A stretch of DNA of 64,000 nt from a virus: positions 32,514 to 96,513 of IMG/VR virus record IMGVR_UViG_3300008113_000016. The stretch is one strand, 5' to 3'. Below are positions 1-62,622 of the stretch, one piece after another (the first letter of the stretch is position 1; each line of letters starts with the position of its first letter). Under the pieces are notes generated by a model, which had not been told where the DNA came from, ran no database searches, and was given only the letters and a program-made list of their open reading frames with translations. The position numbers were made by a program, and so were the translations under genes.

Positions 1-2
1 CT

Positions 3-2159: not shown

Positions 2160-2175
2160 TTGAAAGGAGAAACAA

Positions 2176-4414: not shown

Positions 4415-4422
4415 TTAAATAA

Positions 4423-4677: not shown

Positions 4678-4717
4678 AAACTTCTGCTACAATACGCTAA
4701 TTACAGAAAGGTAATTA

Positions 4718-7971: not shown

Positions 7972-7992
7972 GGGGGGTATAATTGTTATGGA

Positions 7993-9191: not shown

Positions 9192-9246
9192 TATAATAGT
9201 ATCAACAGGCTCACTTATAGAGCCAACTACTTAAGGAGTATAAATT

Positions 9247-9906: not shown

Positions 9907-9913
9907 AAGATTG

Positions 9914-9943
9914 GGTGGGGAGTTTAGCCATTTACTCCCCACC
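9914..9943 (+). terminator. GC-rich hairpin between SSB and dnaE (terminator or stability element)
   Basis: GGTGGGGAGT / ACTCCCCACC 10-bp inverted repeat, no strong U-tract. Confidence 0.5.
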
Positions 9944-9965
9944 TAACACAAACAGATAGGAAGAC

Positions 9966-12900
9966 ATGTTTAACAACCATCACTCACACTCATACTATAG
10001 TTTGCTAGACGGATACTCTAGCCCACTAGAGTTGATGCAACGTGCAAAAGAAGTTGGCATGTCTTCTATGTCTATTACAGATCATGGTACTTTAAGTGGT
10101 CACAGAGATTTTCTTATGGCTGCAAAAGAAACTGGTGTAAAGCCAATCCTTGGTCTTGAGGCATATTTTACAACAGACAGAAATGATAAGCGTTCTAAGA
10201 AAGAAAGAAACGAAGATGAACAGGTTTATAATCACTTAATCGTTTTGGCAAAAAATGAAACTGGTTTATCTAATCTAAGTAAGATATCTGAGATAGCGTG
10301 GAACGACGGGTTTTTTACAAAACCAAGAATTGACTTTGATATTCTGGAAGAAAATCATGAAGGTCTTATAGTTTTATCTGGATGCATGAACGGAATCATT
10401 GCAAAGGCTATTCAAAACAACAACCCTTCTTTAGCAAAACAATATACTGCTTGGTTTAAGGATGTGTTTAAAGAAGACTTTTATATGGAAGTTCAGCCAC
10501 ATAACCCAGTAGAATTAAACATGCAACTTCTTTCCCTTGCAGATGAAATGGGAGTAAAGCCAACGGTAACCTTAGACTGCCATTATGCTTCTCCAGAAGA
10601 TCGGATTGCAGAAGAGATTATGCTTATCCTTGGAACGCATCCAAATGTTCTTAAGGAATCAAGTTTTGATGCAAGCAGAAAGATCAAGGACATTATGTCC
10701 AGACTTGATTACCTATATGGAGAAAGAAAAATGTCTTTCAAGGACTTAGACATTTATTTGATGGGTTACGAAGAGTTAATGTCAAAGATGAAAAAGTCTG
10801 GAATTGATCGACTAGACATGTTTGAGTCAAGCATGGAAATCTCTGATAAGGTTAGTAGTTATGAATTAAAGCAGAACCTAGACTTACTACCAATTCAGGT
10901 CTCAGACCCCGCACAGGAACTCCAGAGGCTGTCTTTTGCTGGTCTTAAAGCAAAAGGTCTAAACAATGATGAAGCATACCTAAAGCGTCTTAATGATGAA
11001 CTAAGTATTATTAAAGAAAAGAATTTTTCTGCATACTTTTTAGTTGTAGCCAACATGATTGGTTGGGCAAAGAATAATGAAATTATGGTTGGTCCAGGTC
11101 GTGGCTCTGCTGCTGGATCACTAGTTTGCTACGCTCTTGGAATCACTGACGTTGACCCAATAGAGCACGGACTTCTATTCTTTAGATTTATTAATCCAGA
11201 ACGTAATGACTTTCCAGATATTGACACAGACTACCAAGACTCTAGAAGAAATGAAGTTAAGGATTATTTAACAGAACAATATACTAACGTTGCATCTATT
11301 GCAACATTCCTTACATTTAAAGATAAGGGTGTTGTGCGAGATGTTGCAAGAGCCTTTCATATTCCACTAGCAGAAGTAAATAAGTCCCTTAAGAATGTTG
11401 AAACTTGGGACGAGTTTTTATCAAGCAAAACAACAGAAGAATTTAGGTCAAAGTATCCAGAGGTTGTTTTCTATGCAGATAAATTGCGTGGAAGAATTCG
11501 TGGAACTGGAATGCATGCTGCAGGAATAGTTGCATCTCAAGAGCCTATATCAAACTTTGCTCCTATGGAAACTAGAAAAGATACACAGAGTGACTCAAGA
11601 ATTCCTGTTGTTGCGGTGGATATGGAAAAAGCAGCAGACATTGGATTGATTAAAATTGATGCTCTTGGTTTAAAGACTCTTACAGTTATAAAGCAAACGC
11701 TAGATATAATCAAAGAGAGACATGGCAAAGAGATCAATCTATCCACCCTTCCACTTCACGATGCTGAGGTCTATGCAGATCTTAGTGCAGGTTTTACAAA
11801 GGGTGTCTTTCAGGCTGAAGCAGTTCCATACACAAATCTTTTGGTTAAGATGGGCGTAAGCAACTTTGACGAACTTGCTGCTTCTAATGCTTTGGTTCGT
11901 CCAGGAGCCATGAACACCATTGGAAAAGAATATATTTTAAGAAAAAAGGGTAAAAAGCAAGTAAAGTACATACATGATTTATTAAAACCATATACAATAG
12001 ATACCTATGGATGTATTCTCTACCAAGAACAAGTTATGCAAGCATGCGTACACCTTGGCGGTATGTCCATGTCGGAAGCAGATAAAGTTAGAAAGATCAT
12101 TGGAAAGAAAAAAGATGCTAAAGAGTTTGACCAGTTCAAAGAACAATTTGTTACTGGAGCATCTAATCACATCTCAGAGAAGGAAGCAGAGGCTTTATGG
12201 CATGATTTTGAGGCTCATGCTGGCTACTCTTTTAACAAGTCTCATGCTGTTGCTTACTCTATGCTATCTTATTGGACGGCTTGGCTAAAAAAATACTATC
12301 CGCATGAGTTTATGTTTGCAATCCTTAAAAATGAAAAAGACAAGGATGCTCGTACAGAATATTTAATTGAGGCTAAAAGAATTGGAATCAATGTTCGTTT
12401 GCCACACATTAATGAGTCTGACATTGACTTTAAACTAGAGGGTCAATCTATTCGATTTGGGTTGGGTAACGTAAAGTTTATATCAGAGAACATTGGTAAA
12501 AAGATTCTTGCTAACGCACCATACAAGTCTTATAAGGATTTTGTAGACTTTGCTATGGAAAAAGGATCTGGCATTAACAGCAGAGCAGTAGACGCATTAA
12601 ACAAAGTTGGTGCTGCTGCATTTAATGACAAGCCAAGAACTGGTGAAGAAAGACAAAACTATTATGAATATCTAAATATTCCAGAATTTAATTCAGAGAT
12701 TCCTAGATATATGGAAGCATACTTTACTCCACTAGAGGAGTTTGACGAGGTTTCTTGTATGATAGTTTCTGCAATGGTAAAGTCAATCAAACGTGGCAAG
12801 GGTTGGTCAAGAGTAGAGATTGTAGATAAGACTGGCAGCATTGGTGTTTTCCATGATGAAGATACAAACATTGAACCAGGAAAAATTTACATTATTTTAA

Positions 12901-47151: not shown

Positions 47152-47714
47152 TGGGGTTTTGGGATAGCCTAGACAAAGAAACTGCGGGAGATGCCATCCT
47201 AACAGGATATAAAGGTGATCTTGCAGATATGCCTCTCTATGAAGAGGTACACAACAAAGTTCCAGGAGGTCACTCAGTTCTTGACTTTGGCTGTGGTGTA
47301 GGAAGAAATATCCCAAGCCTAGTAAACAAGTTTGAAAAGGTAGTAGGGTATGACTTCCCTAATATGCTTGATCTAGTTCCAGAAGGGCGGAAACAGGTAA
47401 GCAATGACCCATACAAACTATCTTACAGTAGTAACTGGGACTATGTATCCCTACAGAAATATGATTGTATCTTTGCTAGTTTAGTCTTCCAGCATATTGA
47501 TGAAGAAGAACTAAATACATACTTATCAGATATGCAAGGTATGTTGGTTAATAAATTAGTTGTACATTCAAGAACTACTTTAGATAACGGTACTACTCTA
47601 GTGTTACCTATTATTGAAAAATACTTTGCTTTGGATTCTATTGATTATAAGAAAGATCCAAACAGTGCTGCTTACGATCACTTCATTGCGGTCTTTAAGC
47701 ATCAGTGGATGTAG
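47151..47714 (+). CDS. class I SAM-dependent methyltransferase
   Basis: VLDFGCGVGR, YD......VFQH. Confidence 0.85.
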   Translation: MGFWDSLDKETAGDAILTGYKGDLADMPLYEEVHNKVPGGHSVLDFGCGVGRNIPSLVNKFEKVVGYDFPNMLDLVPEGRKQVSNDPYKLSYSSNWDYVSLQKYDCIFASLVFQHIDEEELNTYLSDMQGMLVNKLVVHSRTTLDNGTTLVLPIIEKYFALDSIDYKKDPNSAAYDHFIAVFKHQWM

Positions 47715-47775
47715 CGTAGTGGTAGCGCATCACCTTGCCAAGGTGTAGGTGTGGGTTCGATTCCCATCATCCGCT
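47705..47775 (+). tRNA. tRNA-Gly(GCC)
   Basis: Acceptor GTGGATG/CATCCGC, CACC-TTGCCAA-GGTG, GGTTCGATTCC. Confidence 0.88.
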
Positions 47776-47785
47776 CAAAAATAAC

Positions 47786-47814
47786 TAAAGGGGCTACTTT
47801 ATGTAGCCCCTTTA
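47786..47814. terminator. bidirectional terminator at the strand switch
   Basis: TAAAGGGGCTAC-TTTAT-GTAGCCCCTTTA. Confidence 0.75.
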
Positions 47815-47892
47815 ATCTTTAAATTTCGGCGGTGACTAGAAGCGTCGGCGTGACTAGGAGCAATAAAGTATTGTCCCAATACACCTAGTCCT

Positions 47893-48312
47893 CTACTTAA
47901 TCCGAATAGTTTTTGGTTTCTTCTCTTCTGGCACAATACGTTCTACTTCGATGGTTAGCATTCCTGCATCCATCTTGGCTCCAACGACTTCCATGAATTC
48001 GCCAAGTGCAAAAGTTCTTACGAACTTTCTTGTGGCAATACCTCTGTGAAGATACTCTGCAGCATCCTCATCAGCCTTTTCACCTTTAACGATAAGTGTG
48101 CCATTATCTACAGACACCTCTACATCGTCCTTGTCGAAGCCAGCAACAGCAATAGATACCTTGTAGGTATCATCGTTTTCTTTCACGATATTATAAGGTG
48201 GATATGATTGCTTAGATGCTGCTTCATGAATATGTGCAAAACGGTCTAACTCACGGTTAAACCCAATAAAAAAAGGATCTGAGAACAGATCCATAGTAAA
48301 TAGATTACCCAT
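47893..48312 (-). CDS. small heat shock protein Hsp20
   Basis: YPPYNI, AVAGF, YLHRGIA.R.F.R.F.L, GML.I; ATG 48312 after AGGAG. Confidence 0.93.
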   Translation of the reverse strand: MGNLFTMDLFSDPFFIGFNRELDRFAHIHEAASKQSYPPYNIVKENDDTYKVSIAVAGFDKDDVEVSVDNGTLIVKGEKADEDAAEYLHRGIATRKFVRTFALGEFMEVVGAKMDAGMLTIEVERIVPEEKKPKTIRIK

Positions 48313-48473
48313 TTTTGTTCTCCTTTTAAGCGAGTAAATTGGCGGAATCCCAAATGGCAATTCCACCTGATACCATTATACTATATAGAACAATATAAGG
48401 TCAATTTATCTTGAATCAAGGATAACTTCCCAGTGATTAATTCCGTTCCTCCGTAATATGTTATACTAGAGAT

Positions 48474-48557
48474 ATGAAACCTTTCTTAATTTTACTTCTT
48501 GGATTATTCATCTTTCTTAACTATATGGCTTATTTACAACAACAGAATTGGGGATAA
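48474..48557 (+). CDS. 27-aa hydrophobic peptide, probably leaderless
   Basis: MKPFLILLLGLFIFLNYMAYLQQQNWG; TGTTATACT 6 nt upstream. Confidence 0.4.
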   Translation: MKPFLILLLGLFIFLNYMAYLQQQNWG

Positions 48558-48900
48558 CCTGTGTATAAACCTGTGGATAACTTAATATAAACAGTGCTTA
48601 TGTTATATGTATATCAGTACTAATATATATAGTATGTTTTTACTGTGTAATAATGTGTATATGAAATAGCCTTCGTAATCATTTTCCCAACTGGGGAAAA
48701 ACTGTGGATAACTTATCATATCTTGTGGATAACATTGTGGATAACCCAGTATGATAGGATAAGTACTGTATATTGTCTTAAAATGTGGATAAATATGTGT
48801 CTCAAATATTGAGAAATTCTGTACTATTTTAAGACAAAATAACTTATTTTACATATATTTTAATTCATTTAATCTCTTTTCTTATTGTTTTTATCCTATA
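48549..48900. promoter_or_regulatory. DnaA-box cluster with AT-rich tracts, candidate replication origin
   Basis: TGTGGATAA at 48572, 48703, 48724, 48736, 48784; TGTGTATAA at 48560; variant at 48549. Confidence 0.7.
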
Positions 48901-48955
48901 TATAATCCCAGTGATTTTTAGATCAAGTTCGTAATCTATTTTAGATCCCGATTCA

Positions 48956-51900
48956 TTATTCGGATGCAACTGCTATGTCTGCATATCCTAGTATTCTTAG
49001 ATATGCAAATGTACTCATGAGTAACTCACGGGTATTACAAACGTCACATCCACAAAAGATATCATAGGTATTATAACCATCAGGAACTTCTTCATCCATC
49101 AATTGATTGTAAGCATTATTGAGATGATCAGTTACATATTCCTCAAGCATTATAGCATGTTCCTGCGTAATGTCAATTTTTAGCATATTCCCCAAATTTC
49201 CTGTGAAATTCCAGTGACTTTTTTCACATCATCGTAATGTTTATTTAGATTGGTTTTGAAAGTCGGCTGCATCGCCTGCTCTCGCAGGCAGATGACTAAT
49301 AAGCCTACTCTACTTCTGCAACTTTTTCTACAGTGTAAGGTTGGATTAACTCCAGGATGTTATCTAAGTTAATCTTAATTGGTGGCTCATTATGCTGATT
49401 AACAAAATCCTCTAACTGAATAAAGGTTTGCTCTAACTTTTCCTTACCCTTATCTGTAAGTGCTAGATCCCCGTCAATCAATCCATATGCATAAGGAAAT
49501 CCTAAATCGTTGGCAGCACAAAAGTATGCTACCTCTCCATCATAGCGATGGTTAAGCCATACCTTTGTAAGTGTGGCAGCCATCTGTGTAAACTCTTCGT
49601 TATTAATTTCTTCCATAGCCTAATTATACCGTCCTATTCTAACTCTGTCAAATCTACTGGCTCTTGTCCTTCAGGATTTCTGTAAGACCTGCCAGAGATG
49701 TAATTGTGGTATTCTTTCCACTCATCTAATCTATCATTCATATCATCTGAGAAGGCACGAGAGGTGTGCTGTGCCAACTCTGCTGGAGATAGCCTTCCGT
49801 CAAGGAATGCCTTCTCTAGGTGTTTGCTTGCCTCTTTTTCATTCATCATTGGATTGTATCATATTCCTCTCAGATTGTAAAGTTAAGAAATGGCTGCTTG
49901 CTCCCCCTCAGAAACAGCATACTTAGCGACTTGGGATAAACCCTCCGACAATAGCCGTACCAAGTTTAATTAATTAACGAGACTTGACTTTGGTACCCTT
50001 GCGAAGTGCACTGAGGGACACATTGTCAACGAACTTGCCATTCTTACGAATAACAACACGGTCTGATAGACCATAGCGTGTATCCCATTGTTCTAGGTAC
50101 GGGATCTGCTTTGCTTTCTTTGCCATATGCTTTCTGCCTTTCTAGACTAATTCAGTCTGTCGTGAGTAGTAATCGATGAACTGTTGAATAGATACTACGT
50201 TGCCTGCATCATTAACAGTATTGTTGGTGAGGTCAATCATGGTGTAATGATATTCCTCTTCGGTCCTATCCATTTGATTAACAAGGATGCCAAAACCTGT
50301 CTCGCTATCCCATGAATCACCGATGAGTTGAGATATCATGATTCGCAATGCATAAGGAGTATCTCCCATGGCAATACGACCCTGTGCTGCAGTAAGTGCA
50401 CGGGCTAAATCATAGTTCTTGGTATCTCCGCCCCAATGTGAATACAGTGTTACTGTATTGTCTTCATCTTGTTTAAAATGAAAATTAGTTCTTGCTCCCA
50501 CGATTAAACCTCTTCTTCTATGCTAGTAACTTCTAGTGGATACCAATCAAAGGCGTAAATTTCTACGTCTTCTTCACGCTCTATACGTTCAATCTCTTCA
50601 ATTGCTTCAGCCTCTGTTTCTGCCTCAATCTCAAAGTCGTATAACGTTTCTCGTTTTGCTTCTATCTTATACATTGGCATTGTAGTTTTCCAATCCTACT
50701 AGGGTAAGTTCCTGAATTGTAGCACACTCTGTGCATTTCTCCAAATCGTGTTCCTGAAAAGAATCTCTAATAAGATTATCAGGGTCCTCTAGTTCAGCAT
50801 GGCAACTTTCACAGAAATACCAATTAGAACTAACTTTGATTTGAATATCAGTATCTGCGGGGAAAGGGACCTCAGTGATAAAGTATCCTATTCGATTGAC
50901 AAAGTGCCAGCCTGACCAAATGTAAGAGCCACCGTCGTCACCATCACCATACATCCATATCTGACGCTCTGGAAAACATTTGACAAAGTTGACCTCATCT
51001 CCATATGTTTCCCACATGTAACCATCAAAAGATGCATTCTCATCGAAGGTATTCTTGATAGGCTTATAAGTCTCAAACCACTCATCGAAGTCCATCTCAA
51101 TAAACTTATTCACTGAGTTTCATCCTAACTATGTCATATGCATCAATACATCCAGCAGTATAGTCAACCATTGAGAACTCATTCTCAGATTCATATTGCT
51201 CACGCATTACAGTTAGTTCTTCTATCCTTAACTTAACAAAGGATAATAGTTCTTCAAGCATTTTGATACCTGTCTTTCATTTCGAGGAGGATAAGGTCCG
51301 TATACTCTACAGCACCTTCTAGGTAGTGGTATATTGTATCAGCACCGTCAACGGTTGTCAAACGCTCTTCTAATTCATTCTTAAGATTCTCAGTATAGCG
51401 AATGATCCCCTCAATCAAATCTACCGCAGTCTCTCGTTCACAGGGACCACAGCAAACATATTCGTCTTCGCTGTAAGGTACGGAGCAACCACAACTGTTG
51501 CACCAAGACTCATCATACATTCCCATTGTCTTCTCCTTGCTCATATGGTGGAACATTTACAGCAGGAGGTTCTGAGAAGAATAGATTGAAAGCAACCTCT
51601 AAGCCCTGAGCGTAGCCCATAGCCTCAGTTCTTTCCATAGACAACATAGCGTCTGAGAAACCATCTTGTTCTTCTTCTTGGGCAATCTCATTAAAATCTG
51701 CCCACGCTCTGTCAATTAGTTCTTGTAGTGCTTGTTTGAGGGTCTGTGTCATTGTTTTGCTTTCTAGTAGTGGAAATCAACTGGAACGATATATTGTAGC
51801 ATAGCCTTGTCAGGATTGTCAAGTCTCTCCATAAGATACTTCATATGGCTGGTATGCTCTACACAGTCAAAGAAATGGCTATCTGAGGTATAAAAGTCCA

Positions 51901-52300
51901 TGAGTGATTCGCAAGCGTTCTTAATGGTATAAGTATTCATGCTGAATCTCTGATTATCTGGAATACCACTATTTGAGATATAATCAACCATATCACTAAC
52001 AAACTTATCTGTGTTAATTTCCTTTAATGCACGATTCATGTTTTCAATACGCCAAGACTTAATTTGTTCAATAAGATTATTAAACTTATCTTTGTCAGTT
52101 GCATAGGATATAACTTGTGAATCATTAGGTGAGTATCCGTCTCCAATTGGATTCCAACGACCACCACCAACTACATGCCAGTCAGACCATTCTGGAAAAC
52201 TGTATCCAGTATCATCTGAAGGTTCTAGTAATGCTGAAACTTCTGAGAATGCTTCTTCTTTATCTGGGGCTTCTACTATAAAATAATGAAGCGTATGCAT
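48956..52300 (-). other. cluster of about 11 small hypothetical genes, probably early
   Basis: Tightly packed minus-strand ORFs with AAAGG/GAGG RBS, including 49974-50126 and 50504-50680 absent from the track. Confidence 0.7.
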
Positions 52301-52330
52301 GAGGGGTAACCTTTCTGTTGTGAGGCTCTA

Positions 52331-52352
52331 AGTATACCAAAAGCCACTGACA
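52331..52352 (-). promoter_or_regulatory. PafBC/RecA-NDp-type promoter
   Basis: TGTCAG-TGGCTTTTGG-TATACT. Confidence 0.7.
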
Positions 52353-52430
52353 AATGCAATTCCCGTGACTTTTTTGCTTACCCCGTAATAGTGAGATTGA
52401 TCACATATCCCACCCGCCCTGCATTTCTTG

Positions 52431-52506
52431 CGATTCCGATGGGATTTGAACCCACGATCTCTACAGTGACAGTGTAGCGATTTAAACCAGACTAATCTAC
52501 GGAACC
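52431..52506 (-). tRNA. tRNA-Asp(GUC)
   Basis: Reverse complement GGTTCCG...CTACA-CTGTCAC-TGTAG...GGTTCAAATCC...CGGAATCG. Confidence 0.92.
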
Positions 52507-52512
52507 AAATGG

Positions 52513-52541
52513 TGAGCAGTTTTAAATCTTGCTCAGGATTT
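52513..52541 (-). ncRNA. H-type pseudoknot repeat, copy 1
   Basis: AAAUC-CUGAGCAA-GAUUU-AAAAC-UGCUCA. Confidence 0.6.
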
Positions 52542-52546
52542 TTTAG

Positions 52547-53557
52547 TTATGCGCTAACTAAAGTCTGCACAACTTTTAGCAGACGATTTTTTTCTGCATT
52601 GACCTGTGGGTCAAAACCAGAAGCAGCAGCAAGAATGCTTTCGTTGTTTCCACCACGAGCAGTGCGGAACCAATCAAGGCGTTCTGTGAGAGCGTTAAAC
52701 GCACCCCAAGCATTACCAGCAATCATTCCGTTAAATTGCCCTGTGTAAATATCGTTGATAATATCAACTTTATTTTCCCACTTCTTAAGCGCACCCTTTG
52801 TATCCTTCTCAGGCTTTGGGTAAGCAGCAAGAATAATCTTGTTAAAGTCTTGTGCGGTGATTTCCTTCTCAATCATAGCCTTAGCCATTTTATCGAATTC
52901 GTCCATATAGACATTAGCAAGACCAAGAGCCTCACGAGCAGCAACTACCTTGCCCTCTGCGGTCTGAGTGTGGCGTATCTTGAAAGATTGCTTTACGCCG
53001 TTCTTCTTCTTAATTGAATTAAGAGCAAGATTGAGAGTGTTAGCGCACACTACACGAACAGGTGTAATGCTTGCTTGAATTGCAACAGAACCGTCGTGTG
53101 ATGTGTTGATGAGCAAATAAGTCTTTACAACATCTGCAACACCGTTAGGGTCTAGAACAGTTTCACGCTCTAGTGCAATAGAACCGAAAACCACTTTACC
53201 CTTTTTGATTGAGCCAGCAGTTTCCCAACGACCTCCACCGTCGATGATGTTATCACCAAATGAGAATAAATCTTCATTCTGTAGTGGAACATAACGCTCA
53301 CCAACAACGCCAAGAATATCTGTGCCGTTGTCATATGGATTGGTGCGTGTAACCATAAATGAATTAGAAGCCTTACGATACCCGTCAGGGATAATCATAT
53401 CTTCTAACTTAACATTCCAGTTATTTAGTTTTGCTAGTGATAGCATTTCTGATGTATTTACTTCTTCTGTAAATACTGTGCCTAAACCGTGCCAAGCAGG
53501 TTCTCTGAATGAAGCGAAAGATGTTTCGCCGTTTTGTTGCTCTAAATCGTGAGCCAT
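52547..53557 (-). CDS. DUF932/DUF945 (TIGR03299-type) phage/plasmid protein
   Basis: PAWHGLG, Y..LQN, ETAGS...G, YLL..TSHDGS, RVVCANTL, RHT. Confidence 0.88.
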   Translation of the reverse strand: MAHDLEQQNGETSFASFREPAWHGLGTVFTEEVNTSEMLSLAKLNNWNVKLEDMIIPDGYRKASNSFMVTRTNPYDNGTDILGVVGERYVPLQNEDLFSFGDNIIDGGGRWETAGSIKKGKVVFGSIALERETVLDPNGVADVVKTYLLINTSHDGSVAIQASITPVRVVCANTLNLALNSIKKKNGVKQSFKIRHTQTAEGKVVAAREALGLANVYMDEFDKMAKAMIEKEITAQDFNKIILAAYPKPEKDTKGALKKWENKVDIINDIYTGQFNGMIAGNAWGAFNALTERLDWFRTARGGNNESILAAASGFDPQVNAEKNRLLKVVQTLVSA

Positions 53558-53586
53558 TTTTTTCCTTTCGATTGGTTGATGGTGCA

Positions 53587-53608
53587 ATTATAGCAGTCTG
53601 GGCTGACA
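53587..53608 (-). promoter_or_regulatory. PafBC/RecA-NDp-type promoter
   Basis: TGTCAG-CCCAGACTGC-TATAAT. Confidence 0.7.
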
Positions 53609-53687
53609 TATGTCAAATCGTCCTGTGAAAAATGTCCGATTTGCGTAATGCTATCTTATATAGTGAGACGGGGGCGGGTTGGAAAAG

Positions 53688-53771
53688 GGACAGTTTAAAC
53701 ACATGTCCAGGTGATGATCCAAGAAAATGACAATAAACTTGGATGGACCTTTTAACATCGTGTCCAGGATG
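53688..53771 (-). ncRNA. two tandem H-type pseudoknots separated by a hairpin
   Basis: CAUC-CUGGACAC-GAUG..GUCCA; AUCCAAG/CUUGGAU; CAC-CUGGACAU-GUG..UGUCC. Confidence 0.6.
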
Positions 53772-53793
53772 ATTAGATAGCCCCTACCTAAAT

Positions 53794-54270
53794 TTAAGAG
53801 GAAGCCCGTGCACTGTCCAAGGACCAATCATGAATCTCAACGTTTCCATTGCTAGATTCAATTGAAATCTCATCTTGCATTACCCAATCAATATCGAAGT
53901 CTTCAACTTCATCGAATGGTACTGAGACTGTTCCTGTAACTGTAAACGTTGCAGTGAATTCAATTTCCTTGGAAGGATTAATTCCAAAGTACTCGCATAG
54001 TTCACGCAGCACGTCGTCCTTATCATAGTTTGGGTTAGACCATTCCATGATGTGTTCATCAAGACCGTTAATCTTATCCTGCAGAACTGCATTATGCTTT
54101 GACGCTTGTCGTGCATTGTGTAGTTCCCATTCAATATTGCGTACCTTATCGATAGTATACTCAGGGTCTGAGTATCCATGAATCACCTTGTACGAGATGA
54201 GTGTGTCTGGGTTGTAAGGTACTGACAGTTCTTCTTCTGTCTTATATGTTTGTAGCGACATAAGGGGCAT
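53794..54270 (-). CDS. hypothetical protein
   Basis: 158-aa ORF downstream of a PafBC-type promoter (54298-54319). Confidence 0.65.
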   Translation of the reverse strand: MPLMSLQTYKTEEELSVPYNPDTLISYKVIHGYSDPEYTIDKVRNIEWELHNARQASKHNAVLQDKINGLDEHIMEWSNPNYDKDDVLRELCEYFGINPSKEIEFTATFTVTGTVSVPFDEVEDFDIDWVMQDEISIESSNGNVEIHDWSLDSARASS

Positions 54271-54480
54271 TCTTCTTTCTAGTAGGTTAGGGTCCTAATT
54301 ATACACGAACCCAGTGACATTTTCAACTTGTACCTTAATGAATGTGAGGAATATCACAAAAAGTCGGGCGCAGCATTTGCTGCGCTAACTAAATTAATTT
54401 ATCATGAAATCCAATCACCAATCAAAATTAAAAATAAAATAAAAAATGATAATCCAATTATTACACTTGCCATGTTAACC

Positions 54481-55200
54481 TCACTTCTTACTAGAGGAGA
54501 AGATTATATCAGATTTATTGAAGACGCACAAGGAGCAGGTTACACAAGCAGAACCCTCTTTGCTAATCAGTGGAATAGCCTTTTTATTTTCAGGACACTT
54601 TGCTCCAGGCTTTCCGATAATTTCTTTTAGAGTGCTTTGACCAATAGCAAAATTTTGTGCAAGGTATGCCATTTTAATACCATAAGTCAATTTAAGATCT
54701 GTTGCCTCTTTGATATTCTCACTGTCTGCAGAATAATATAATGAGAGATTATCTATATCCTTAAGCATAATTGCAGCAGACTTTACACGAGTATATACCC
54801 AGAATTGAATATCAGGATGATTTAAGATAATATGCTTCCAGGCGAAGGCATAATCGTCGCTAAAGAAATCTCCGTCCCAGTGGATACGGAATAACTTTTC
54901 AGCATTGCGCTTTTCACAATCCTTTTTGAAATCTGCAATCATCTCTTCAAGCAGCAATTCCATTGTGTCGTGGTCTGCGTCTTTTAGCAAATTCCAATTG
55001 TTAAGTAGATTATCTCTTACGCCCTTATATATCTTTTCTAGTTTTCCTGCGTAGCAGACTTTCTTACATATAGAGGTTTCACCAGGGCACGAGTAAGCCT
55101 TGCCACTAGGCAATCCAAAAGTGTTGGCAATTGTTGGGGTTTTTCCATTAGGGGAGACGGCATTAGTAACTTTCCTATCTTTAGAACGAATGAGGGGCAT
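54481..55200 (-). CDS. Gp88-family (radical-SAM-related) protein
   Basis: F.LP....CPG....C...CYA, FRIHWDGDF, FWVYTR, C..C.LC. Confidence 0.75.
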   Translation of the reverse strand: MPLIRSKDRKVTNAVSPNGKTPTIANTFGLPSGKAYSCPGETSICKKVCYAGKLEKIYKGVRDNLLNNWNLLKDADHDTMELLLEEMIADFKKDCEKRNAEKLFRIHWDGDFFSDDYAFAWKHIILNHPDIQFWVYTRVKSAAIMLKDIDNLSLYYSADSENIKEATDLKLTYGIKMAYLAQNFAIGQSTLKEIIGKPGAKCPENKKAIPLISKEGSACVTCSLCVFNKSDIIFSSSKK

Positions 55201-55215
55201 TTAGTGTTCCTTTCT

Positions 55216-55353
55216 TTAGCGATATTCTACCATACGGGACTGACGATGTTTTACCTTGCGAGAATAAGCCTTTTTAGACTTTACATAGGTAGCAGCATTA
55301 GACCTACGGAGATCCATAAGTTTTCGCAATTCTTCCTCAGTCTTTTTTCGCAT
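55216..55353 (-). CDS. 45-aa basic leaderless protein (not in ORF track)
   Basis: MRKKTEEELRKLMDLRRSNAATYVKSKKAYSRKVKHRQSRMVEYR; ATG 6 nt after TATACT. Confidence 0.6.
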   Translation of the reverse strand: MRKKTEEELRKLMDLRRSNAATYVKSKKAYSRKVKHRQSRMVEYR

Positions 55354-55531
55354 ATTGCAAGTATAGCAAATTTATCAGACATTAGCAAATCAAAACGCTG
55401 TGATAAATCTCACATGGTTTTAATGCTGTGGATAACCTGTGGATAAACCCGCCCGCATTTTTATGCATAGCAATTTATAAAAATACATTTTTTATTTTTG
55501 ATCCAAATAAAAAAAATAAATAAAAAAATGT

Positions 55532-55559
55532 TGAGCAGTTTTGCGACTTACTCAGGTCG
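55532..55559 (-). ncRNA. H-type pseudoknot repeat
   Basis: CGAC-CUGAGUAA-GUCG-CAAAAC-UGCUCA, followed by U-tract. Confidence 0.6.
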
Positions 55560-55585
55560 TTTTGTTTTAGCGTTGTGCTAAACTA

Positions 55586-56011
55586 TTACAAATAACGAGC
55601 AATAGCGTTGTATGTAGAAGTATTTACAACTTCCTCATCTGTCATTTTGAGGATACGAATTGCGTTCGTGATTTCCTCTTTTTGCTCGTTGTAAGTGTGG
55701 GTGTGAATTACCTCAAAATCCTTTTCAGGTTCTTGTGGGAAATCTCCCTGCTTTACTACAATGTCAAAATCAACATTGAGGTTGTTGTTCCAAGAACGAT
55801 AGTTAGTGCGAAGGTTCTCAGCCTTTGAGAAGTTCTCAATAGCCCATTTACCAACTTCCTTGCGCCACTTTTCCATAGCCTTAGTGTGCTTGGCTTCGTT
55901 TTCGCCTTGTGTAGCGTAGTTCTTTTCTAACTCAGCAAGGCGTGTTTCTAGTGCCTTGATTACTTTAGGGGTAGCGATTTTCACGCTAATAGATTTTCCG
56001 TTTCTAGCCAT
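55586..56011 (-). CDS. hypothetical protein
   Basis: Start MARNGK after AAAGGA; promoter at 56051-56072. Confidence 0.7.
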   Translation of the reverse strand: MARNGKSISVKIATPKVIKALETRLAELEKNYATQGENEAKHTKAMEKWRKEVGKWAIENFSKAENLRTNYRSWNNNLNVDFDIVVKQGDFPQEPEKDFEVIHTHTYNEQKEEITNAIRILKMTDEEVVNTSTYNAIARYL

Positions 56012-56476
56012 TTTGTTTCCTTTTCTGTTGAGGGTTTGTCTTGTAGGGGTATTATAGCAGGGGCTACTGACAAGCAATAACCCCTGCTAATCTTATTAGT
56101 CTAGGGCTTCTGAATAGCAAGCGTCATAGAAACGCTTACTATCGAAGTTAGGGTTATCACTCTCAAAATAAGCACAGAACTCGTCAATGAGTTCCTCAAA
56201 TACAATTTGAGGGATTTCGTCTTTGTATGTGCTAAGGATTTCAGCCGTTGCCACATAGTCTTTGCGTGTCATCATTTTATTAGTTTGCCTTTCTTGTGCG
56301 ATAGTATTTGTAAGCCTTGTAACCTGCGTATGCTAATCCTGTTAGCAATACTGCGTTAGGTATGTTTATGTCAATCCATAATAGATTATCTACTTGGAAA
56401 GAAATCCACCAATTATTGCTTATCTCAAATAATACTTTGTTATCCATTTTTACCTGTCCTTTTCTTTTTTGTTAGT

Positions 56477-56504
56477 TGAGCCTTTTAGACACTTGCTCAG
56501 GTGT
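56477..56504 (-). ncRNA. H-type pseudoknot repeat
   Basis: ACAC-CUGAGCAA-GUGU-CUAAAAG-GCUCA. Confidence 0.6.
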
Positions 56505-59357
56505 GTGGATAATTACTTATCCAAATCCTCAACTGACACAGTTGTCCAACGCTCTCCCTTTGGAGTAGTTAGTCGAACTCTCACCGAGCCAGATGAGTTA
56601 GATACGATTTCCTCAATCGTTCCTGTAACGCCACTTTTTAGAGTTGTGAATAAATCGCCAACCTTGTAAGTGTTTCCATTTACTGACATTATTGCTTCCC
56701 TTCGTTTGTTGTTTGTAGGCTTATTGTATCAGGTGCTACTGACAAATTACAGAGCACCCTCTTGGAACAGCCCAATTTCCAAATCTAGTTTTTCATTTTC
56801 GGTGGCTTCGGATAAATCTACCCAACCAGCACCATTTTCATCTATTCTAAAAATCTCTACATAACCCATTTGGTTTGTCCTTTCTGTATGTAGCAATTAT
56901 AGCAAAATCTTGGAGGCAAATCAAATCCAAAACGAAATAATCTCACATTTTGATACAAAATCCCTGTGATAAAAATCACACGGATCTTACTTGACTTACT
57001 GGCGAGTAGGGGGGCGGGTTTAGTTGAAACTTCAACTATATATTGCGATGATCCATCCCACTGTAATTAAAATAAATAAAATAACATCTAACAATTTTGC
57101 ATTAACCAATCGTCTTCAGGATAATATTTTGCTAACGTTTCATCGCTGTAGCATGCATGACACAATTGAATGTCGTCGTCAATTGGTCCTTCCATCCACA
57201 TTTTATTAGTACAATTTAAGCAAGTTTCATTCATACTCTTCTCCCTCTACTGGGTCGATGAACCATTGCAAGTGGTGCTGCTCTACAATTGCGTGTGCAG
57301 GTGCTTGCGTTGAACCTTTATAAGTAATTTGAAAATCACCAACCATTGGCATTTCAATCATACGATTATAATCTTCATCGTAGAATGCGTCAATTGCTTC
57401 AATACAAGGTTGAACCATTTCTGCGGGAACGGGTGGATAGTGATTACCCTTCAAGTGATAGAGTAATTGTGTTTCTAAGTCTAGAACGCTATCTGCTAAT
57501 CCAATTGCTGTAACTGATCCCATTATTATTTCTCCTCTATATCTGATACATAAACATCATTTTTATTTAGTAATCCGTATTTGATATTGCTATCAAACAT
57601 TTCAATAGCAGCGTCATAGTCCTCTGCTTCAACATTTATAAAACAAGTAAATTCAAACAGGGGCATTATTTCACGCTCACATTTCCATTAGTGTAGAAAG
57701 TCTTAGTATACATTTTACCCGTAGGGTCTGACAGGTTATAGGTTGCGTATTCTTTTGCGTCTCCATAATCAACGCACTTAGTCCAAGCGTCTACTGCTTC
57801 TAGTAAATCGCTAACACGCAAAGTATTTACAAGGCTTCCGTCATAGGAAGTAGTTAGAGAGTAATTGTATTCCATTATTACTCACCAACCTTTACTGCTA
57901 CTGTGCGATAAGTATTCTTGAACCCATACTGAGGCTTTACCTCTACAAGGTAAGAGTCGCAACCTTCATACCAAACTGCGTGAGGGTGCTTTTCTGCGGA
58001 GACAATTTCTCCACTTACTGAACGGGATACATAGCGTGTGCCTACAAGTAGGCTTTCGATAGAATAAACATTTGCTGACATTATTTAGTCTCACTTTCTT
58101 TTGTTGTTGATACGGACATTGTAGCAGATAGAACTGACAAGGCTTCTGCCTTGCTTGCTTGACGGGTGGCGATTACATACGCCTTGAATTCGTCTAGGTT
58201 CATTTTTGACCTTCTTTCGTTGTTGTTATAGTAGCAAGTATACCAAAATAGTCTGACATTATCAAATCCAAATTCGGACATTTGGGACACTTTCCGTGTG
58301 ATAAATCTCACACTCGTAAATCCAGTGATAAATCTCACATCGTACATAAAGGTGCAAAACGGACATTTTGCCCCCGCCCGTTTTTTATGCAGATCGTCGC
58401 ATTTTTATAAATTACAAAATTAATTTTTTAATTTAGCAATTATTTTTTCTGCTTCTAATTTTGTAATTATTTCATCTGCGAAAGCAATTGAAATTTCTGT
58501 TTGCTGTTTTTCTGTAAGCGATGCCCACAAATAACCAAGCAAATAGTGTGTGCCACTATCTACATTACCATTACGAATTTTTGTAGACATTTCTTTTACT
58601 TCTTGTAGCAATTCCATATTAGCCATTTAGCCACTCCTCTCCAGAAAAATCACTTTCCATTTGTGATAAATCTTCATCAGTAGGTGTAAAGAAATCCTCA
58701 AAATCTTCTTCTACTTCAGGGGTAGTAAAGAGAGAGGCATTATCTTCATAGTAGTTATCCCAAGAGTATTTTGGGGCTTCCCAAGACATTGTGTAAGTCA
58801 TTATTTATTCTCCATTTCTTTTACGCAATCACAAGGCTCACAATCATAGTCATTTTCGTTACCCCAAAAGATAACGCCTTGACCATTACATTCATCACAA
58901 TCAAAACGCATTAGAAAGTTTATCATTGAGAAACCTTCCAATCTCTCCACATTGGGAGGCGTTCAGGGTCAGTATCATCATACCAACGCTCTATGTTATT
59001 TTCACAAACTTCGCAGAATGTGAATTGGTCATCTCCTACCATTGAGATAGCAGACTTATTAGGTGTGTGAGATTTACACACTTCGTTTATTGTTAATGTA
59101 GTCATTTTGACCACCTTTCTTTAATTTCTAATACTAGTATCCTAACAGATACCACTGACAAATTGAGGTCTTATTTGCTTAGGCTCACTGTGATTTATCT
59201 CACATTTATTTGCTAAGGCTCATACCTTGCTTCTTTATTTAATTTTTCTTATACGGGAAGTATAGCACAAGGAAACGGAAAAGTCAAGTCCAGACACGGA
59301 CAAAACGGACATTTTTAATGTGATGTTCGTCACAGAGGGCGGGTGATCCAAGGCGGG

Positions 59358-59388
59358 TTTTTTTGCTAACCTTTCGATTAGCAAAAAA
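59358..59388. terminator. bidirectional terminator-like palindrome
   Basis: TTTTTTGCTAA...TTAGCAAAAAA. Confidence 0.55.
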
Positions 59389-59896
59389 CTTTTTTAGTTT
59401 TCGATAACTTCTAAAACTTCAAAAGCATTAAACTTTTCTAATTCATCATCAGAAAGTTTTGCAAATACTTTATTTAGATTGAATACTGCTTGCAAATCTG
59501 AATCTGCATCAGTAACGAAACTAATCAAAACATTTTTTTTCATTTATATTCTCCTTTCGAGATAAGTTCATCTAGCATTTTTGCTAGTGGGTCTATTGGC
59601 TCGTCTGCCAAATAGTTTTCTAATTCTAATTGTTTTACGAAATCTATCATTGTTTATTTATCCTTTCTTATTCTTAGCAATAAACTAATTCTGTAGAGTA
59701 TGAGTATGTCATTGACTCTCTGTCAAAGTAAGCCCACATTTCTTGTGTCTTGTGAGACTTATCTACGGAACAGAACCTGTCCCAACTATCACCTGTCCAT
59801 TGGCAGGATAGGCACTTACTTACTTGATGTGATAATACTTTTGTCATTTTCTGACCTTTCTAGTTTAGAGACCTTCTCTAACTTTCTAATACTGGA

Positions 59897-60071
59897 AGTA
59901 TAACACAGGGTACTGACATTTTGAGGGGTATAAAACGGACATTCTAGACATTGTGATGTAGGTCATATGTGATGTACGCCACAGAGGGCGGGTGGTGTGA
60001 GGTATATCACAAAAATAGTTTTGAGACACGCCCGAAAAACGGGTCAAAATGTCAGTGGTAGGTGATAGGAT
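59897..60071. promoter_or_regulatory. divergent promoter hub: two PafBC-type promoters flanking three CRP-type boxes
   Basis: Minus 59897-59918 TGTCAG-N10-TATACT; plus 60050-60071 TGTCAG-N10-TAGGAT; TGTGA-N6-TCACA-like at 59952, 59968, 59996. Confidence 0.7.
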
Positions 60072-60119
60072 ACTAGGTATCAAGATGAGATAAAGGTTAT
60101 CTCAAAGAAAGGAGTCAAT

Positions 60120-60677
60120 ATGACTCACTCATTATCCGTAGTGGTAGAACCCTATCACTCTATGTCCTCTAGCAATACTAAGGATAAGAATATCTTTAGA
60201 CTTGCTAATGGTAACTACATTAGCAGAATTGCTTATGTCCATATGGTAGCCTCTGAGGGATTACTCTCTCATCGTTACCTAAGCCCTAACGAAAGTAAAT
60301 GGGTATTCCAATTTAGAAAGGAGTCTAACTAATGACTACACTTATTTGTTGTTTCTGTGAGAAAACTTATTCTCACGGAACTATGTTCTGCGGTTTCTGT
60401 AACGAATACAAAGGTCTTATGACTATTACAGATTTTGATAAATACTATGGAAAGGTATCTAACTAATGGATTACTATGACGATTACTATGATTATCAAAA
60501 CGATAACCTATTATCAGTAGGTTGTTACTGCAAGATTAATTTTGTTTGTTCTGAATGCAAGGAGGATTACCTATGAAGATTTGGATATCATGTCAGATCT
60601 GTGAACAACCTGTTGTTGAAGTAGATATTGAAGACAGTAAGTATCTAACAGCAACTTGCTCAGAGTGTTGGGATTAG
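60120..60677 (+). other. operon of four micro-ORFs, three with paired Cys motifs
   Basis: 60120-60332, 60332-60466, 60466-60576, 60573-60677 with TAATG/ATGA coupling. Confidence 0.6.
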
Positions 60678-60799
60678 CAATGCCTGCTAAATCCGCATAA
60701 TGGGCGCACTATTCAAAATCGCATAATGCTTTGAAAATTGCGTATCATACATGAAAAAATTTTATTCACATTTTTAGAATATCTAAATAAACAGTACTA

Positions 60800-61144
60800 T
60801 TAGTTACTTAGTAAGAATTTAAACACAGGAACGGTATCTGGAATCTGATCTTTGGGTGCGGTAGCAAGCCATTCTTTAATAGATTCTACAGATGCAGGAT
60901 CGTGCTCCAAGAATGGAGCATCTTCTTCTGTGTGATGAGACTCCCATTTACCAATTGGACAGGAGGTATCCTGAAACTCAATTTTTCCAGGCATGTAACA
61001 TCCACATCTTCCACATAGGTATGCTTCCTTGTGAAAGAAAGGACAGGTAGCACAAGCAGAGATTCTATGTTTGAGTACAACATCATTTACAACAGCAATC
61101 TCGTATGATGATCCATCTTCATTCTTAACAGTCTTCTTAGCCAT
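60800..61144 (-). CDS. Cys-rich protein (DUF6171-like)
   Basis: R...C..CP...C..CGC.M..K......CP.GKW. Confidence 0.65.
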   Translation of the reverse strand: MAKKTVKNEDGSSYEIAVVNDVVLKHRISACATCPFFHKEAYLCGRCGCYMPGKIEFQDTSCPIGKWESHHTEEDAPFLEHDPASVESIKEWLATAPKDQIPDTVPVFKFLLSN

Positions 61145-61376
61145 GATTTTCACTACTTTCTTGTTTCCATTTACCCAATGGGCAATATGCATGAGGCAAT
61201 TTTGCCTTTGCATTCATTATACATCCACATTGCTTACACATGTTGATAGGTTTAAGTAATTGAGGACATGCTTTGCATATCTCTAATCTATTTAAATAAA
61301 CAGTATCATTAACTTTATCTATACTAGGATTAAGCATATCCCAAGGCATTGCTTGTCTATCTGGAACATTACTCAT
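61137..61376 (-). CDS. Cys-rich protein (DUF6171-like), tandem paralogue
   Basis: RLEICKACP...CKQCGCIM.AK.......CPLGKW. Confidence 0.7.
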   Translation of the reverse strand: MSNVPDRQAMPWDMLNPSIDKVNDTVYLNRLEICKACPQLLKPINMCKQCGCIMNAKAKLPHAYCPLGKWKQESSENHG

Positions 61377-61578
61377 TGTTATCTTCTTCTCCTACAAGCG
61401 ACGGAAGTGGACACATCAGTTGTCCCTGACTATGTAATTGCCGTAGATTCAATGCATCTTCACCTTTACCTAAAGCATCGGCAACTAATAGCAACATATC
61501 ATAAACCCTACCTAGCATAATATAAGTAATTACGCCTGAGTTCTCATTAATATCTTTAAATTCAGATTCTGTGCTCAT
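61369..61578 (-). CDS. hypothetical protein
   Basis: ORF in operon. Confidence 0.55.
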   Translation of the reverse strand: MSTESEFKDINENSGVITYIMLGRVYDMLLLVADALGKGEDALNLRQLHSQGQLMCPLPSLVGEEDNNE

Positions 61579-62260
61579 GCCACGCCTTCGCTGTTATAGG
61601 AAACGATTGTAGCACAAAAGATTCGATAGCGTTAGCGTATTCACGAATCTCATATTGCGAATCTTGTTTCTTTCTTAGCGACAAAAAGTGAAGTACGGAA
61701 TTTAGTGAGGCAGTCCAATGCCATCGCACATACATAGCATATGCTGGAAGCAGCAATCTTGCTTGTTCTGGTGCGATACCATCCTCTAATGCCTCTAAAT
61801 AGGCTGTATGCCCTAATTCTGCTAGTTGTCTTAATTTGTTTGTATACATGGCTCCTGTTTCCGCCGAAACTGGCAAGCCAGAGCCTTGCTTTTTATTTTC
61901 AGGAGAAGATCTCCACTCATTTGGTAGAGGTAGATAGAAAATCTCATTTTCAGTTACATACCTCCTACTACTTTCATTCCAACCCAACTGGTCTTCTACA
62001 TGTGCGCTTGCTACAGCATGCTTATACCACTGTCTAGCGACCATAAGAGGTGCGTAGACCTCAAAGGTAAGGGCGCAATGTCTCAGTGTAGAATCATGCT
62101 TGTCACGAACTAAGAAGTTAATTAATTTTTCATCTTTGTCTGTAATTTCGACGCTTGCTTTTTCGAAAGAAGCCCTAGCAGCATTTACCACTTCTAGATC
62201 TGAACCCATTGTATGCACAAGCCCAACGTACCCATGATCTAGCACTTTGATTTTTTCCAT
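61562..62260 (-). CDS. thyX: FAD-dependent thymidylate synthase
   Basis: VNAARASF, H.S...H, VARQW..H, NESSRRY, EQAR.LLP, Q.EIR. Confidence 0.92.
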   Translation of the reverse strand: MEKIKVLDHGYVGLVHTMGSDLEVVNAARASFEKASVEITDKDEKLINFLVRDKHDSTLRHCALTFEVYAPLMVARQWYKHAVASAHVEDQLGWNESSRRYVTENEIFYLPLPNEWRSSPENKKQGSGLPVSAETGAMYTNKLRQLAELGHTAYLEALEDGIAPEQARLLLPAYAMYVRWHWTASLNSVLHFLSLRKKQDSQYEIREYANAIESFVLQSFPITAKAWHEHRI

Positions 62261-62367
62261 TTAAACCCTTACTCTAGAACCCTATTGTACCAAATCAGAC
62301 CTGATTATGCAAATGGTGTATAATTTTCTTATGACCCTTGTTGGTCATAGAAATAGGAGACATACTA

Positions 62368-62622
62368 ATGTCCGAATCATTGAAAAACCTACTATCGTCT
62401 TACGGACGACATGTTCTAGGTGCAGCAATTGCACTTTACGGTGCAGGAGTTACTGACCCTGTAGATCTACTTAACGCATTGTGGGCAGCCTTGCTCCCAG
62501 TAGCAATTCGCTATGTAAACCCAAATGACAAATCATTTGGAAGAATGCCAGAATCTGCAGAAGTTAAGGATGCGCTTGCAAAAGCAAAAGCACCTGTCAA
62601 GAAGTCCAAGAAGGTTATCTAA
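62368..62622 (+). CDS. holin-like membrane protein
   Basis: SY.R..L.A...; L...NPND..FG. Confidence 0.55.
   Translation: MSESLKNLLSSYGRHVLGAAIALYGAGVTDPVDLLNALWAALLPVAIRYVNPNDKSFGRMPESAEVKDALAKAKAPVKKSKKVI

Follow-up and report, generated by a model that had tools for sequence, protein, structure and literature searches.

What reads the small leftward genes of a freshwater actinophage, and why does the same series of short motifs precede so many of them? The genes in question lie in the IMG/VR record IMGVR_UViG_3300008113_000016 (96,513 bp, 38% GC, classed as linear, completeness estimate 83%), the final 64 kb of which form the window analyzed here; all coordinates below are window coordinates. 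The stretch from 48.4 to 60.7 kb appears to be part of the leftward, putatively early (host-takeover-type) arm of an uncultured lytic-type actinobacterial siphovirus of ~100–115 kb. Between 60.07 and 52.3 kb this arm comprises about 12 transcription units, all very short and with one to four small genes each, and the units begin with regulatory segments, called heads here, in which a handful of motifs recur in one order on the minus strand. This architecture is solid. That host factors read the heads is the best reading of the motifs; it is unproven and amounts to a call that falls slightly short of even.

Architecture of the arm

In the direction of transcription, a head is followed by a short leader with a Shine-Dalgarno sequence, by the small genes and finally by a hairpin terminator or a pseudoknot. 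The order of elements is 3' pseudoknot or terminator, GC-rich word, DnaA boxes, CRP box, AATGTCCG, TGTCAG at -26 and an extended -10. DnaA boxes, the GC-rich word and AATGTCCG are optional in any given head, and the CRP palindromes number one or two. What the copies have in common is short motifs (no direct repeat exceeds 28 nt, and most are 8–22 nt), so the pattern is a grammar of motifs and not repeated DNA. Only DUF932 and GP88 give family names to products of the units at 52.3–60.1 kb, the remaining products being unassigned by Pfam and PHROGs.

The motifs are strongly concentrated in the arm. All seven perfect TGTGA-N6-TCACA palindromes of the record fall within 54343–60011, all seven copies of GGGCGGG/CCCGCCC within 52413–59992 and all seven copies of AATGTCCG within 53631–62374, while eight of the nine DnaA boxes TTATCCACA are found within 48572–56512. 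With one mismatch allowed, the CRP pattern has 16 matches (3.4 +/- 1.8 expected from shuffled sequence). All 10 sites of the promoter pattern TGTCAG-N10-TAnnnT in the record are in the arm at 48.5–60.1 kb (1.1 +/- 1.0 expected from shuffling), nine on the minus strand and one, at 60050–60071, divergent on the plus strand; a looser scan adds 54319, 55381 and others, for a total of ~13.

Related phages carry the same signals. The DUF932 gene alone retrieved 325 IMG/VR contigs, 80 of which were fetched (1.31 Mb of loci, including five complete genomes of 105–117 kb). These loci contain 345 perfect CRP palindromes against ~1–3 expected and 391 DnaA boxes against ~10 expected. The strict promoter word occurs 211 times on the gene strand and nine times on the opposite one, and AATGTCCG 167 and 40 times, respectively. 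A composite of a perfect CRP box and, 20–50 nt further on, TGTCAG-N10-TAnnnT is present in at least 120 IMG/VR contigs (~1 expected), with up to seven copies per contig among the matches listed. Pairwise order was analyzed in 482 unique promoters of the 80 relatives and the window: the pseudoknot is upstream of the CRP box in 67 cases and downstream in none, the DnaA box is upstream of it in 81 against 7, GGCGTGTC is upstream of it in 84 against 21, and the CRP box is upstream of AATGTCCG in 70 against 10. These counts are not independent events because the promoters belong to roughly a dozen orthologous families. Different heads inside one genome also obey the same order.

The first-pass annotation of this DNA, made from the letters alone, had described a repeated cassette on the minus strand, and most of this description stands. 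The repetition of motifs is real and far above chance in the whole-record scan and the shuffle controls, the element order is kept across the 482 promoters, and the five gaps given as examples (52331–52419, 54298–54370, 55360–55454, 58237–58379 and 59897–59992) contain the listed elements at the given coordinates. The CRP-, DnaA- and PafBC-type motifs agree with their published forms in their logo, inner T/A preference and perfect DnaA boxes. The proposed extent (48.4–60.7 kb) has to be narrowed: cassettes are found at 52.3–60.1 kb but not at 48.4–52.3 kb, where the genes form one long operon containing canonical TTGACA/TATAAT promoters. Likewise, the GGGCGGG mark holds in this genome, with seven of seven copies in the region, but it is lineage-specific, since its 33 copies in the 1.31 Mb of relatives are about what chance would give.

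The features of the arm are as follows, from the highest coordinates down (found by scan unless another source is given).
59897–60071, both strands: divergent control region with minus promoter 59897–59918 and plus promoter 60050–60071; AATGTCCG 59936–59943, degenerate CRP-like boxes 59952–59983, CCCGCCC 59986–59992, CRP box 59996–60011, GGCGTGTC near 60030
59358–59388, both strands: bidirectional hairpin
59139–59343, minus: tandem head with CCCGCCC 59337–59343, CRP box 59319–59334, AATGTCCG 59306–59313, canonical promoter 59259–59287, CRP box 59189–59204 and TGTCAG promoter 59139–59160
58237–58379, minus: the fullest head; in the direction of transcription, GGGCGGG (58373–58379), AATGTCCG (58360–58367), two CRP boxes (58324–58339, 58297–58312), AATGTCCG (58275–58282), promoter (58237–58258)
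57712–58139, minus: two TGTCAG promoters (57712–57733, 58118–58139)
56723–56980, minus: tandem promoters, canonical 56896–56924 and TGTCAG 56723–56744, with CRP box 56965–56980 and CCCGCCC 57012–57018
56477–56512, minus: DnaA box 56504–56512 and pseudoknot copy 3 (56477–56501), reported as overlapping
55586–56072, minus: promoter 56051–56072 and gene of a 141-aa coiled-coil-like protein, present in 74 of 80 relatives
55532–55556, minus: pseudoknot copy 2, followed by a T-run (motif scan)
55360–55454, minus: head with GGGCGGG 55448–55454, DnaA boxes 55438–55446 and 55427–55435, CRP box 55399–55414 and promoter 55360–55381
54481–55353, minus: unit of a 45-aa basic protein (55216–55353) and a GP88-family protein (54481–55200), its position different in 65 of 65 relatives
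54298–54319, minus: TGTCAC-N10-TATAAT promoter with CRP box 54343–54358; terminator of the upstream unit at 54368–54385
53587–53608, minus: promoter with both a TTGACA -35 (18-nt spacer) and TGTCAG; CCCGCCC 53672–53678, CGGACATT 53631–53638
52547–53587, minus: DUF932 gene, the core gene of the module (80 of 80 relatives), homologue of gp2 of phage EGole
52513–52537, minus: H-type pseudoknot copy 1, AATC-CTGAGCAA-GATT-TAAAA-CTGCTCA, a few nt past the DUF932 stop codon
52430–52506, minus: tRNA-Asp (Rfam), pseudoknot copy 1 lying directly 5' of it
52331–52352, minus: promoter P52352, TGTCAG-N10-TATACT (-26 type), with CRP-like box 52390–52405 and GGGCGGG 52413–52419
48956–52300, minus: long operon of ~11 small genes fed by P52352 (open reading frames and promoter scan)
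51793–51822, 51333–51361, 49623–49651 and 49149–49176, minus: predicted canonical promoters inside this operon
48549–48900, minus: non-coding, origin-like DnaA-box array with five perfect co-oriented TTATCCACA and variants
48375–48404, minus: predicted canonical promoter of the Hsp20 gene

Units end either in hairpin terminators (54368–54385, 59358–59388) or in the conserved 27-nt H-type pseudoknot, of which the window has three copies. The latter follows the pattern NNNC-CTGAGYAN-GNNN, an A-rich linker and CTGCTC, and is placed just past a stop codon. Its stem 1 covaries: among 235 unique copies, the arms are paired 4/4 in 171 and 3/4 in 55, with 25 different arm pairs, and shifted registers used as a control give 4/4 pairing in 0–7 copies only. 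Copy 1 is wedged between the DUF932 stop codon and tRNA-Asp, directly 5' of the tRNA (52506–52541), a position that suggests a role in RNA processing or RNA-end protection. At thresholds up to E = 1, Rfam recognizes two tRNAs and a sub-threshold ROSE_3 and has no match for the pseudoknot. Separately, a CCGACTTT word follows two terminator hairpins (49270–49300 and 54360–54385, minus strand).

Several peculiarities attach to single features. In the tandem head, the CRP box at 59189–59204 is bracketed by a direct repeat, GAGCCTTAGCAAATAA / GAGCCTAAGCAAATAA (59170–59235, minus strand), each copy of which can be read as a mini-ORF of five codons; the arrangement is kept in relatives (L001 near 5400, L039 near 4640), between the canonical and the TGTCAG promoter. 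The DnaA array occupies a gap of ~350 bp with AT-rich tracts between the boxes, lies inside the candidate terminal repeat discussed below and looks like a DnaA-dependent origin. Within the long operon, the promoter at 49623–49651 is a perfect TTGACA-17-TATAAT whose -10 ends 6 nt before the ATG (49616) of gene 49305–49616; a transcript would start at the ATG, so a leaderless mRNA, a typical actinobacterial feature, is predicted for this gene. The ROSE_3 thermosensor match (24.6 bits, E 0.2) covers a possible 5' leader of Hsp20 (48307–48404). In the Hsp20 frame as called, the PHROG match begins at residue 25.

Sixteen runs of freshwater metagenomes, belonging to at least nine studies, contain the phage. 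One of its products is a WhiB protein, specific to Actinobacteria, which places its host in this phylum. The large terminase of the phage is 60% identical to that of Streptomyces BE-type phages (~130 kb), and the phage is a distant relative of the Streptomyces BE1 phages. The GC content of BE1 phages is ~20% below that of their hosts (PMC5764925), so the 38% GC of the record is no sign of a low-GC host. No match to the region was obtained by megablast among 50,697 phage records, and distant blastn hit only pieces of the actinophage genes for GP88 and DUF932. Pfam and PHROGs searches of 30 products named DUF932, GP88, Hsp20 and ThyX only, and neither a sequence search of the PDB nor a protein atlas revealed what GP88 or DUF932 does. 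A host search based on Hsp20 was uninformative, hitting short contigs in metagenome-assembled genomes of three phyla that are probably mis-binned phage.

Promoters, operators and their possible readers

The core promoter of the heads is of the housekeeping-sigma type, with a -10 of TAtAaT that is often TGn-extended, and TGTCAG at -28 to -23 takes the place of a good -35. The logo of 606 unique sites in the relatives reads AwwTGTCAG-tSSc-nnn-TGn-TAtAaT with a weak -35 (T 0.53, T 0.37, G 0.35); the positions of TGTCAG that the search had left free are 81% A and 81% G. A similar motif, tGTCgg(N10)tA(N3)T with its 5' part at -23 to -28, is that of the regulator PafBC, which inserts between domain 4 of sigma-A and DNA, a mode called sigma adaptation; its GTC triplet is invariant among recA promoters of Actinobacteria (PMC8635444). 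The phage word has the geometry of this motif. Upstream of recA, ~40% of 50 genomes of the phylum have GTC-N12-TAnnnT. Large high-GC genomes of the phylum carry TTGTCAGTGGC there, and their recA upstream region reads CATTGTCAGTGGC...TAGCGT, in which 11 letters are identical to P52352. Among 20 small genomes, few have a PafBC-type word upstream of recA. Of 121 genomes sampled from the phylum, 99 have WYL pairs (93 of 115 without the six unpublished genomes G007, G024, G054, G088, G094 and G126), and neither the record nor the five complete relatives encode a WYL protein. No description of PafBC/RecA-NDp-type promoters in phages was found in the literature searched.

The CRP boxes are true to the CRP/GlxR consensus: the two half-sites, the N6 spacer and the preference for T and A at the inner positions all agree. 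No cyclic nucleotide-binding (cNMP) or Crp-type helix-turn-helix domain is encoded by the record and the five complete relatives. The distance from the box center to TGTC is quantized at 36, 46–47 and 56–57 nt, with minor classes of 41–42 and 71–74 nt. Within one orthologous promoter family the box is found at 36, 46 or 57 nt in different relatives, which argues for a helical-face constraint, and the match lengths of the composite in the at least 120 contigs (65–66, 70–71, 75–76 and 85–87) repeat the same distance classes. If transcripts start 7 nt after the -10 (the start sites being predicted), the main series is centered at about -64.5, -74.5 and -85.5, positions that would put CRP upstream of the polymerase in a class I-like manner and not in a repressor-like overlap.

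The GC-rich word is a 7–10-mer at the upstream edge of the heads and differs between lineages. GGGCGGG (52413–59992) fills this place in the window, and other lineages have 4–8 copies of GGGACGTC(CC) (L039, L046, L053, L061) or of CCCCGAGG (L001, L047, L060) in the same places; in L039 the word is the palindrome GGGACGTCCC. Such a word may be the site of a co-evolving protein. GGCGTGTC is common to most lineages.

Under the host-factor reading, host RNA polymerase with its primary sigma would read the promoters, aided by a factor at -26 that is most likely host PafBC acting through sigma adaptation. A host CRP/GlxR-type dimer at the class-I-like positions would boost them, and the DnaA boxes would titrate or sense DnaA. 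Early expression would then depend on the state of the host. The arm would probably lie within a long direct terminal repeat (DTR) and hence be the first DNA into the cell whichever end leads, and the units would evolve as movable blocks of a head and its genes. Below 52.3 kb, one TGTCAG promoter feeds the long operon, which has canonical promoters as well. A bolder form, that a lytic family of freshwater actinophages common around the globe uses PafBC to recognize the promoters of its first-expressed genes, switched on by the incoming linear DNA or the damage it causes and gated by cAMP-CRP and DnaA, is suggested by the motifs only tentatively and has to be regarded as doubtful. If true, sigma adaptation would for the first time be found at the base of phage promoters, and a virulent phage would possess a three-input sensor of host state.

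A number of observations weigh against readout by host factors. About half of the TGTCAG promoters in the window have a usable TTGnnn at 17–18 nt spacing, which is unlike classic PafBC promoters. Most of the genomes of up to 1.8 Mb among the 121 sampled yielded no WYL/PafBC, so a streamlined host would be without PafBC, and the PafBC-type motif is unenriched in five small genomes; the host itself can be placed only at the level of the phylum Actinobacteria. The minor CRP distances of 41–42 and 71–74 nt are half a helical turn out of phase. In the related phage EGole, the terminal repeat has neither CRP palindromes nor DnaA boxes, though it is modular, and the excess of GTC-N12-TAnnnT is weak. 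The integration of host DNA-damage, cAMP and replication state, put forward in the first-pass annotation, is suggested by the likeness of motifs.

The strongest alternative, possible though rather unlikely, is that proteins of the phage itself read the conserved words. TGTCAG would then be bound by an activator or sigma adaptor that the phage encodes, as the MotA box is in T4, canonical TTGACA/TATAAT promoters would be immediate-early and TGTCAG promoters delayed-early or middle, and AATGTCCG and the palindromes would be phage operators. The coexistence of two promoter classes fits this division, particularly where they stand in tandem (59259–59287 before 59139–59160 and 56896–56924 before 56723–56744), as do the weak -35 of the TGTCAG class and the lack of WYL in small-genome members of the phylum. 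A separate GC-rich word for each lineage is what co-evolution with a phage protein would produce. ATGTCCG/CGGACAT is enriched in the EGole terminal repeat too (CGGACA occurs 36 times in 16 kb, ~8 expected), together with the TGTCGGGCCCGGACA palindrome and in a very different host, which fits a regulator inherited within the family; the enrichment in both phage groups keeps a phage-encoded reader in play. On the other hand, Pfam and PHROGs show no recognizable DNA-binding regulator in the module, and WYL, CRP and cNMP domains are absent from the six phage genomes. The palindrome equals the CRP consensus in half-sites, N6 and inner T/A, and chromosomal recA promoters have the same -26 word with the same spacing. 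Moreover, the TGTCAG class includes the promoters closest to the presumed end of the DNA, which would have to fire before any phage protein exists.

Unit order, terminal location and expression

The first-pass annotation had also proposed that shared cassettes enable recombinational shuffling of small genes. Units are permuted among the relatives. Named by their start coordinates in the window, the genes usually follow each other there as 58923, 56096, 57878, 57666, 57227, [55216+GP88], 56513, 55586 and DUF932; in the window the order is 57878, 57666, 57227, 56513, 56096, 55586, [55216+GP88] and DUF932, and a few relatives show additional permutations. The [55216+GP88] unit is displaced in 65 of 65 relatives and gene 56096 in 61 of 61, and gene 60332 is inverted between window and relatives. 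The [55216+GP88] unit travels with its own CRP box and promoter, so the movable block consists of a head and its genes. The shared motifs (up to 28 nt) are, however, too short to show a recombination substrate, and nucleotide similarity to the fetched relatives is limited to core genes, at a distance too great for mapping of breakpoints.

An unlikely explanation of the repeated heads is that they are mainly boundary or linker sequences, in which short words at unit borders allow exchange and the likeness to operators is secondary. The unit order that differs from all fetched relatives speaks for it, and so do the interleaving of core genes with lineage-specific genes and the metagenome contigs that break or join at the pseudoknot (52515–52531), at DnaA boxes and in the divergent control region. 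The sides of these joints are only 20–36 nt long and may come from other phages sharing the motif; for this reason the joints are not counted as evidence of recombination. Shared words are mostly 8–22 nt, and self-BLAST finds no repeat in the region. The fixed spacing of TGTCAG to the -10 and the quantized CRP distances point to selection for promoter function and not for homology, and exchange at the borders is in any case compatible with a regulatory role of the heads. As for the third possibility, that the clusters reflect chance or the composition of AT-rich intergenic DNA, the low GC content (38%) is all that could be said for it, and it is ruled out for practical purposes by the shuffle controls for the CRP pattern and the TGTCAG promoter, by the palindromes and the 211-to-9 strand bias in relatives and by the composite motif.

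In contigs of two metagenome runs, position 56870 is linked to 57941 or 58101, with sides of only 30–33 nt, which suggests co-occurring strains that lack or replace 1.1–1.2 kb. Exact contigs from two lake metatranscriptome libraries of one study cover Hsp20, 50.1–50.4 kb, 51.3–51.6 kb, DUF932 and 53.8–54.2 kb, and a close variant of the 55586–56011 gene has the highest depth among RNA contigs. These contigs show that the region is present in RNA libraries, which is a statement about presence and not about timing or transcript starts.

Whether the arm is a terminal repeat, as had been guessed, depends on the following candidate.
47572–60057, no strand: candidate collapsed long direct terminal repeat of ~12.4 kb with approximate ends, hinted at by read depth and collinearity with EGole

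Two indirect lines of evidence favor it. Streptomyces phage EGole (BE1, NC_055791) has an 11,341-bp DTR with gp1–gp22, small leftward genes each with its own gap. DUF932 and GP88 match EGole gp2 and gp8, both within the DTR, and the frame at 61369–61578 and ThyX match gp23 and gp24, the first genes outside it; the four homologues have identical order and orientation in the two phages. In the DNA run X11, the k-mer depth of exact-match contigs, taken per contig, is 17.8 on the left flank (44.05–47.60 kb), 40, 29.6, 44.6, 28.3, 31.6 and 32.7 inside (47.57–60.02 kb) and 21.3 on the right flank (60.06–63.94 kb), a length-weighted inside/outside ratio of ~1.9. A co-occurring strain sharing the segment would look alike, the depth in a second run, X1, is compatible with a repeat but not decisive, and the suggested left boundary (47.57–47.60 kb) falls inside an open reading frame. 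Neither self-BLAST of the record, which shows no long internal repeat, nor the contig ends of the 80 relatives, which share no boundary, reveal the limits of a repeat; the former does not exclude one because a collapsed repeat would not appear there. The relatives labeled 'DTR' in IMG/VR have overlaps of 99 and 127 bp only, which indicates circular assemblies. On balance, a collapsed terminal repeat of ~12 kb has roughly an even chance of being correct.

Comparison with known systems

If host CRP, DnaA and PafBC do read the sites, abundant lake phages would tie their first genes to the energy, replication and DNA-damage state of the host, which would bear on how phage predation follows host physiology in nature. 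Sigma adaptation of the PafBC type, known from chromosomal repair genes, would then occur in viruses as well. The grammar is usable as a search key, the composite alone having retrieved the at least 120 viral contigs. It also yields natural promoters that are short, have defined operator slots and are open to direct testing in model actinobacteria; through its link to the BE1 terminal repeat, the module becomes accessible in phages that are already in culture.

Individual parts of the heads have counterparts elsewhere. RecA-NDp promoters (PMC8635444, PMC6789036) have the same GTC near -26, N12 and TAnnnT, and the same TTGTCAGTGG word stands upstream of recA in genomes of the phylum. Their -35 is weak or absent, a property that the phage sites share in part, through the weak -35 in the logo of the relatives. 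Unlike them, the phage sites are not on chromosomal repair genes, have A and not G at position 5, retain TTG at -35 in half of the promoters and are coupled to upstream CRP boxes; their binding by PafBC is putative, and the host may lack this protein. The middle promoters of T4 (a MotA box at -30 and a -10, with sigma appropriation) similarly replace the -35 by an activator box at a fixed distance from the -10. The MotA box differs from the phage word in sequence and position, and no homologue of MotA or AsiA was found in the phage.

The BE1 terminal repeat (PMC5764925; EGole) is homologous to the arm in its gene order. The two are collinear, with DUF932 and GP88 inside and ThyX and its neighbor just outside, and share leftward small genes, each with an intergenic head and a hairpin, the CGGACAT/ATGTCCG word and, at 60% identity, the terminase. 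The EGole head (L094, EGole 1–11341) is built of a GC hairpin, the TGTCGGGCCCGGACA palindrome, CGGACATTT and a TTGnnn/TAGACT promoter; the description in the genome paper does not include such a regulatory grammar (PMC5764925).

The closest precedents are the host-takeover module of SPO1 and the Spo0A boxes of phi29. In layout, the arm resembles the former and the pre-early region of T5 (PMC6873191, PMC10531801), blocks of ~10–13 kb at or in a long DTR with about two dozen small genes of unknown function, divided among numerous short units that each have a promoter and a terminator and are presumably read first by host RNA polymerase. The arm shows the same dense packing of small, functionally unassigned genes and the same subdivision. 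It differs in that its terminal location is a deduction, no gene is shared with SPO1 or T5, and its promoters are not plain strong sigma-A promoters and bear TGTCAG at -26 with CRP- and DnaA-type sites upstream. The Spo0A boxes of phi29 and Nf (PMC2731898) provide the precedent for the proposed logic: sites for a master regulator of the host stand at the early promoters and replication origin of a virulent phage and tie infection to host physiology. In phi29, a single regulator represses and its binding has been footprinted, whereas the arm has up to three types of site at activator-like upstream positions, recognized by their letters. The kind of module is thus already known from SPO1, T5 and phi29, and its regulatory grammar is new relative to the literature searched.

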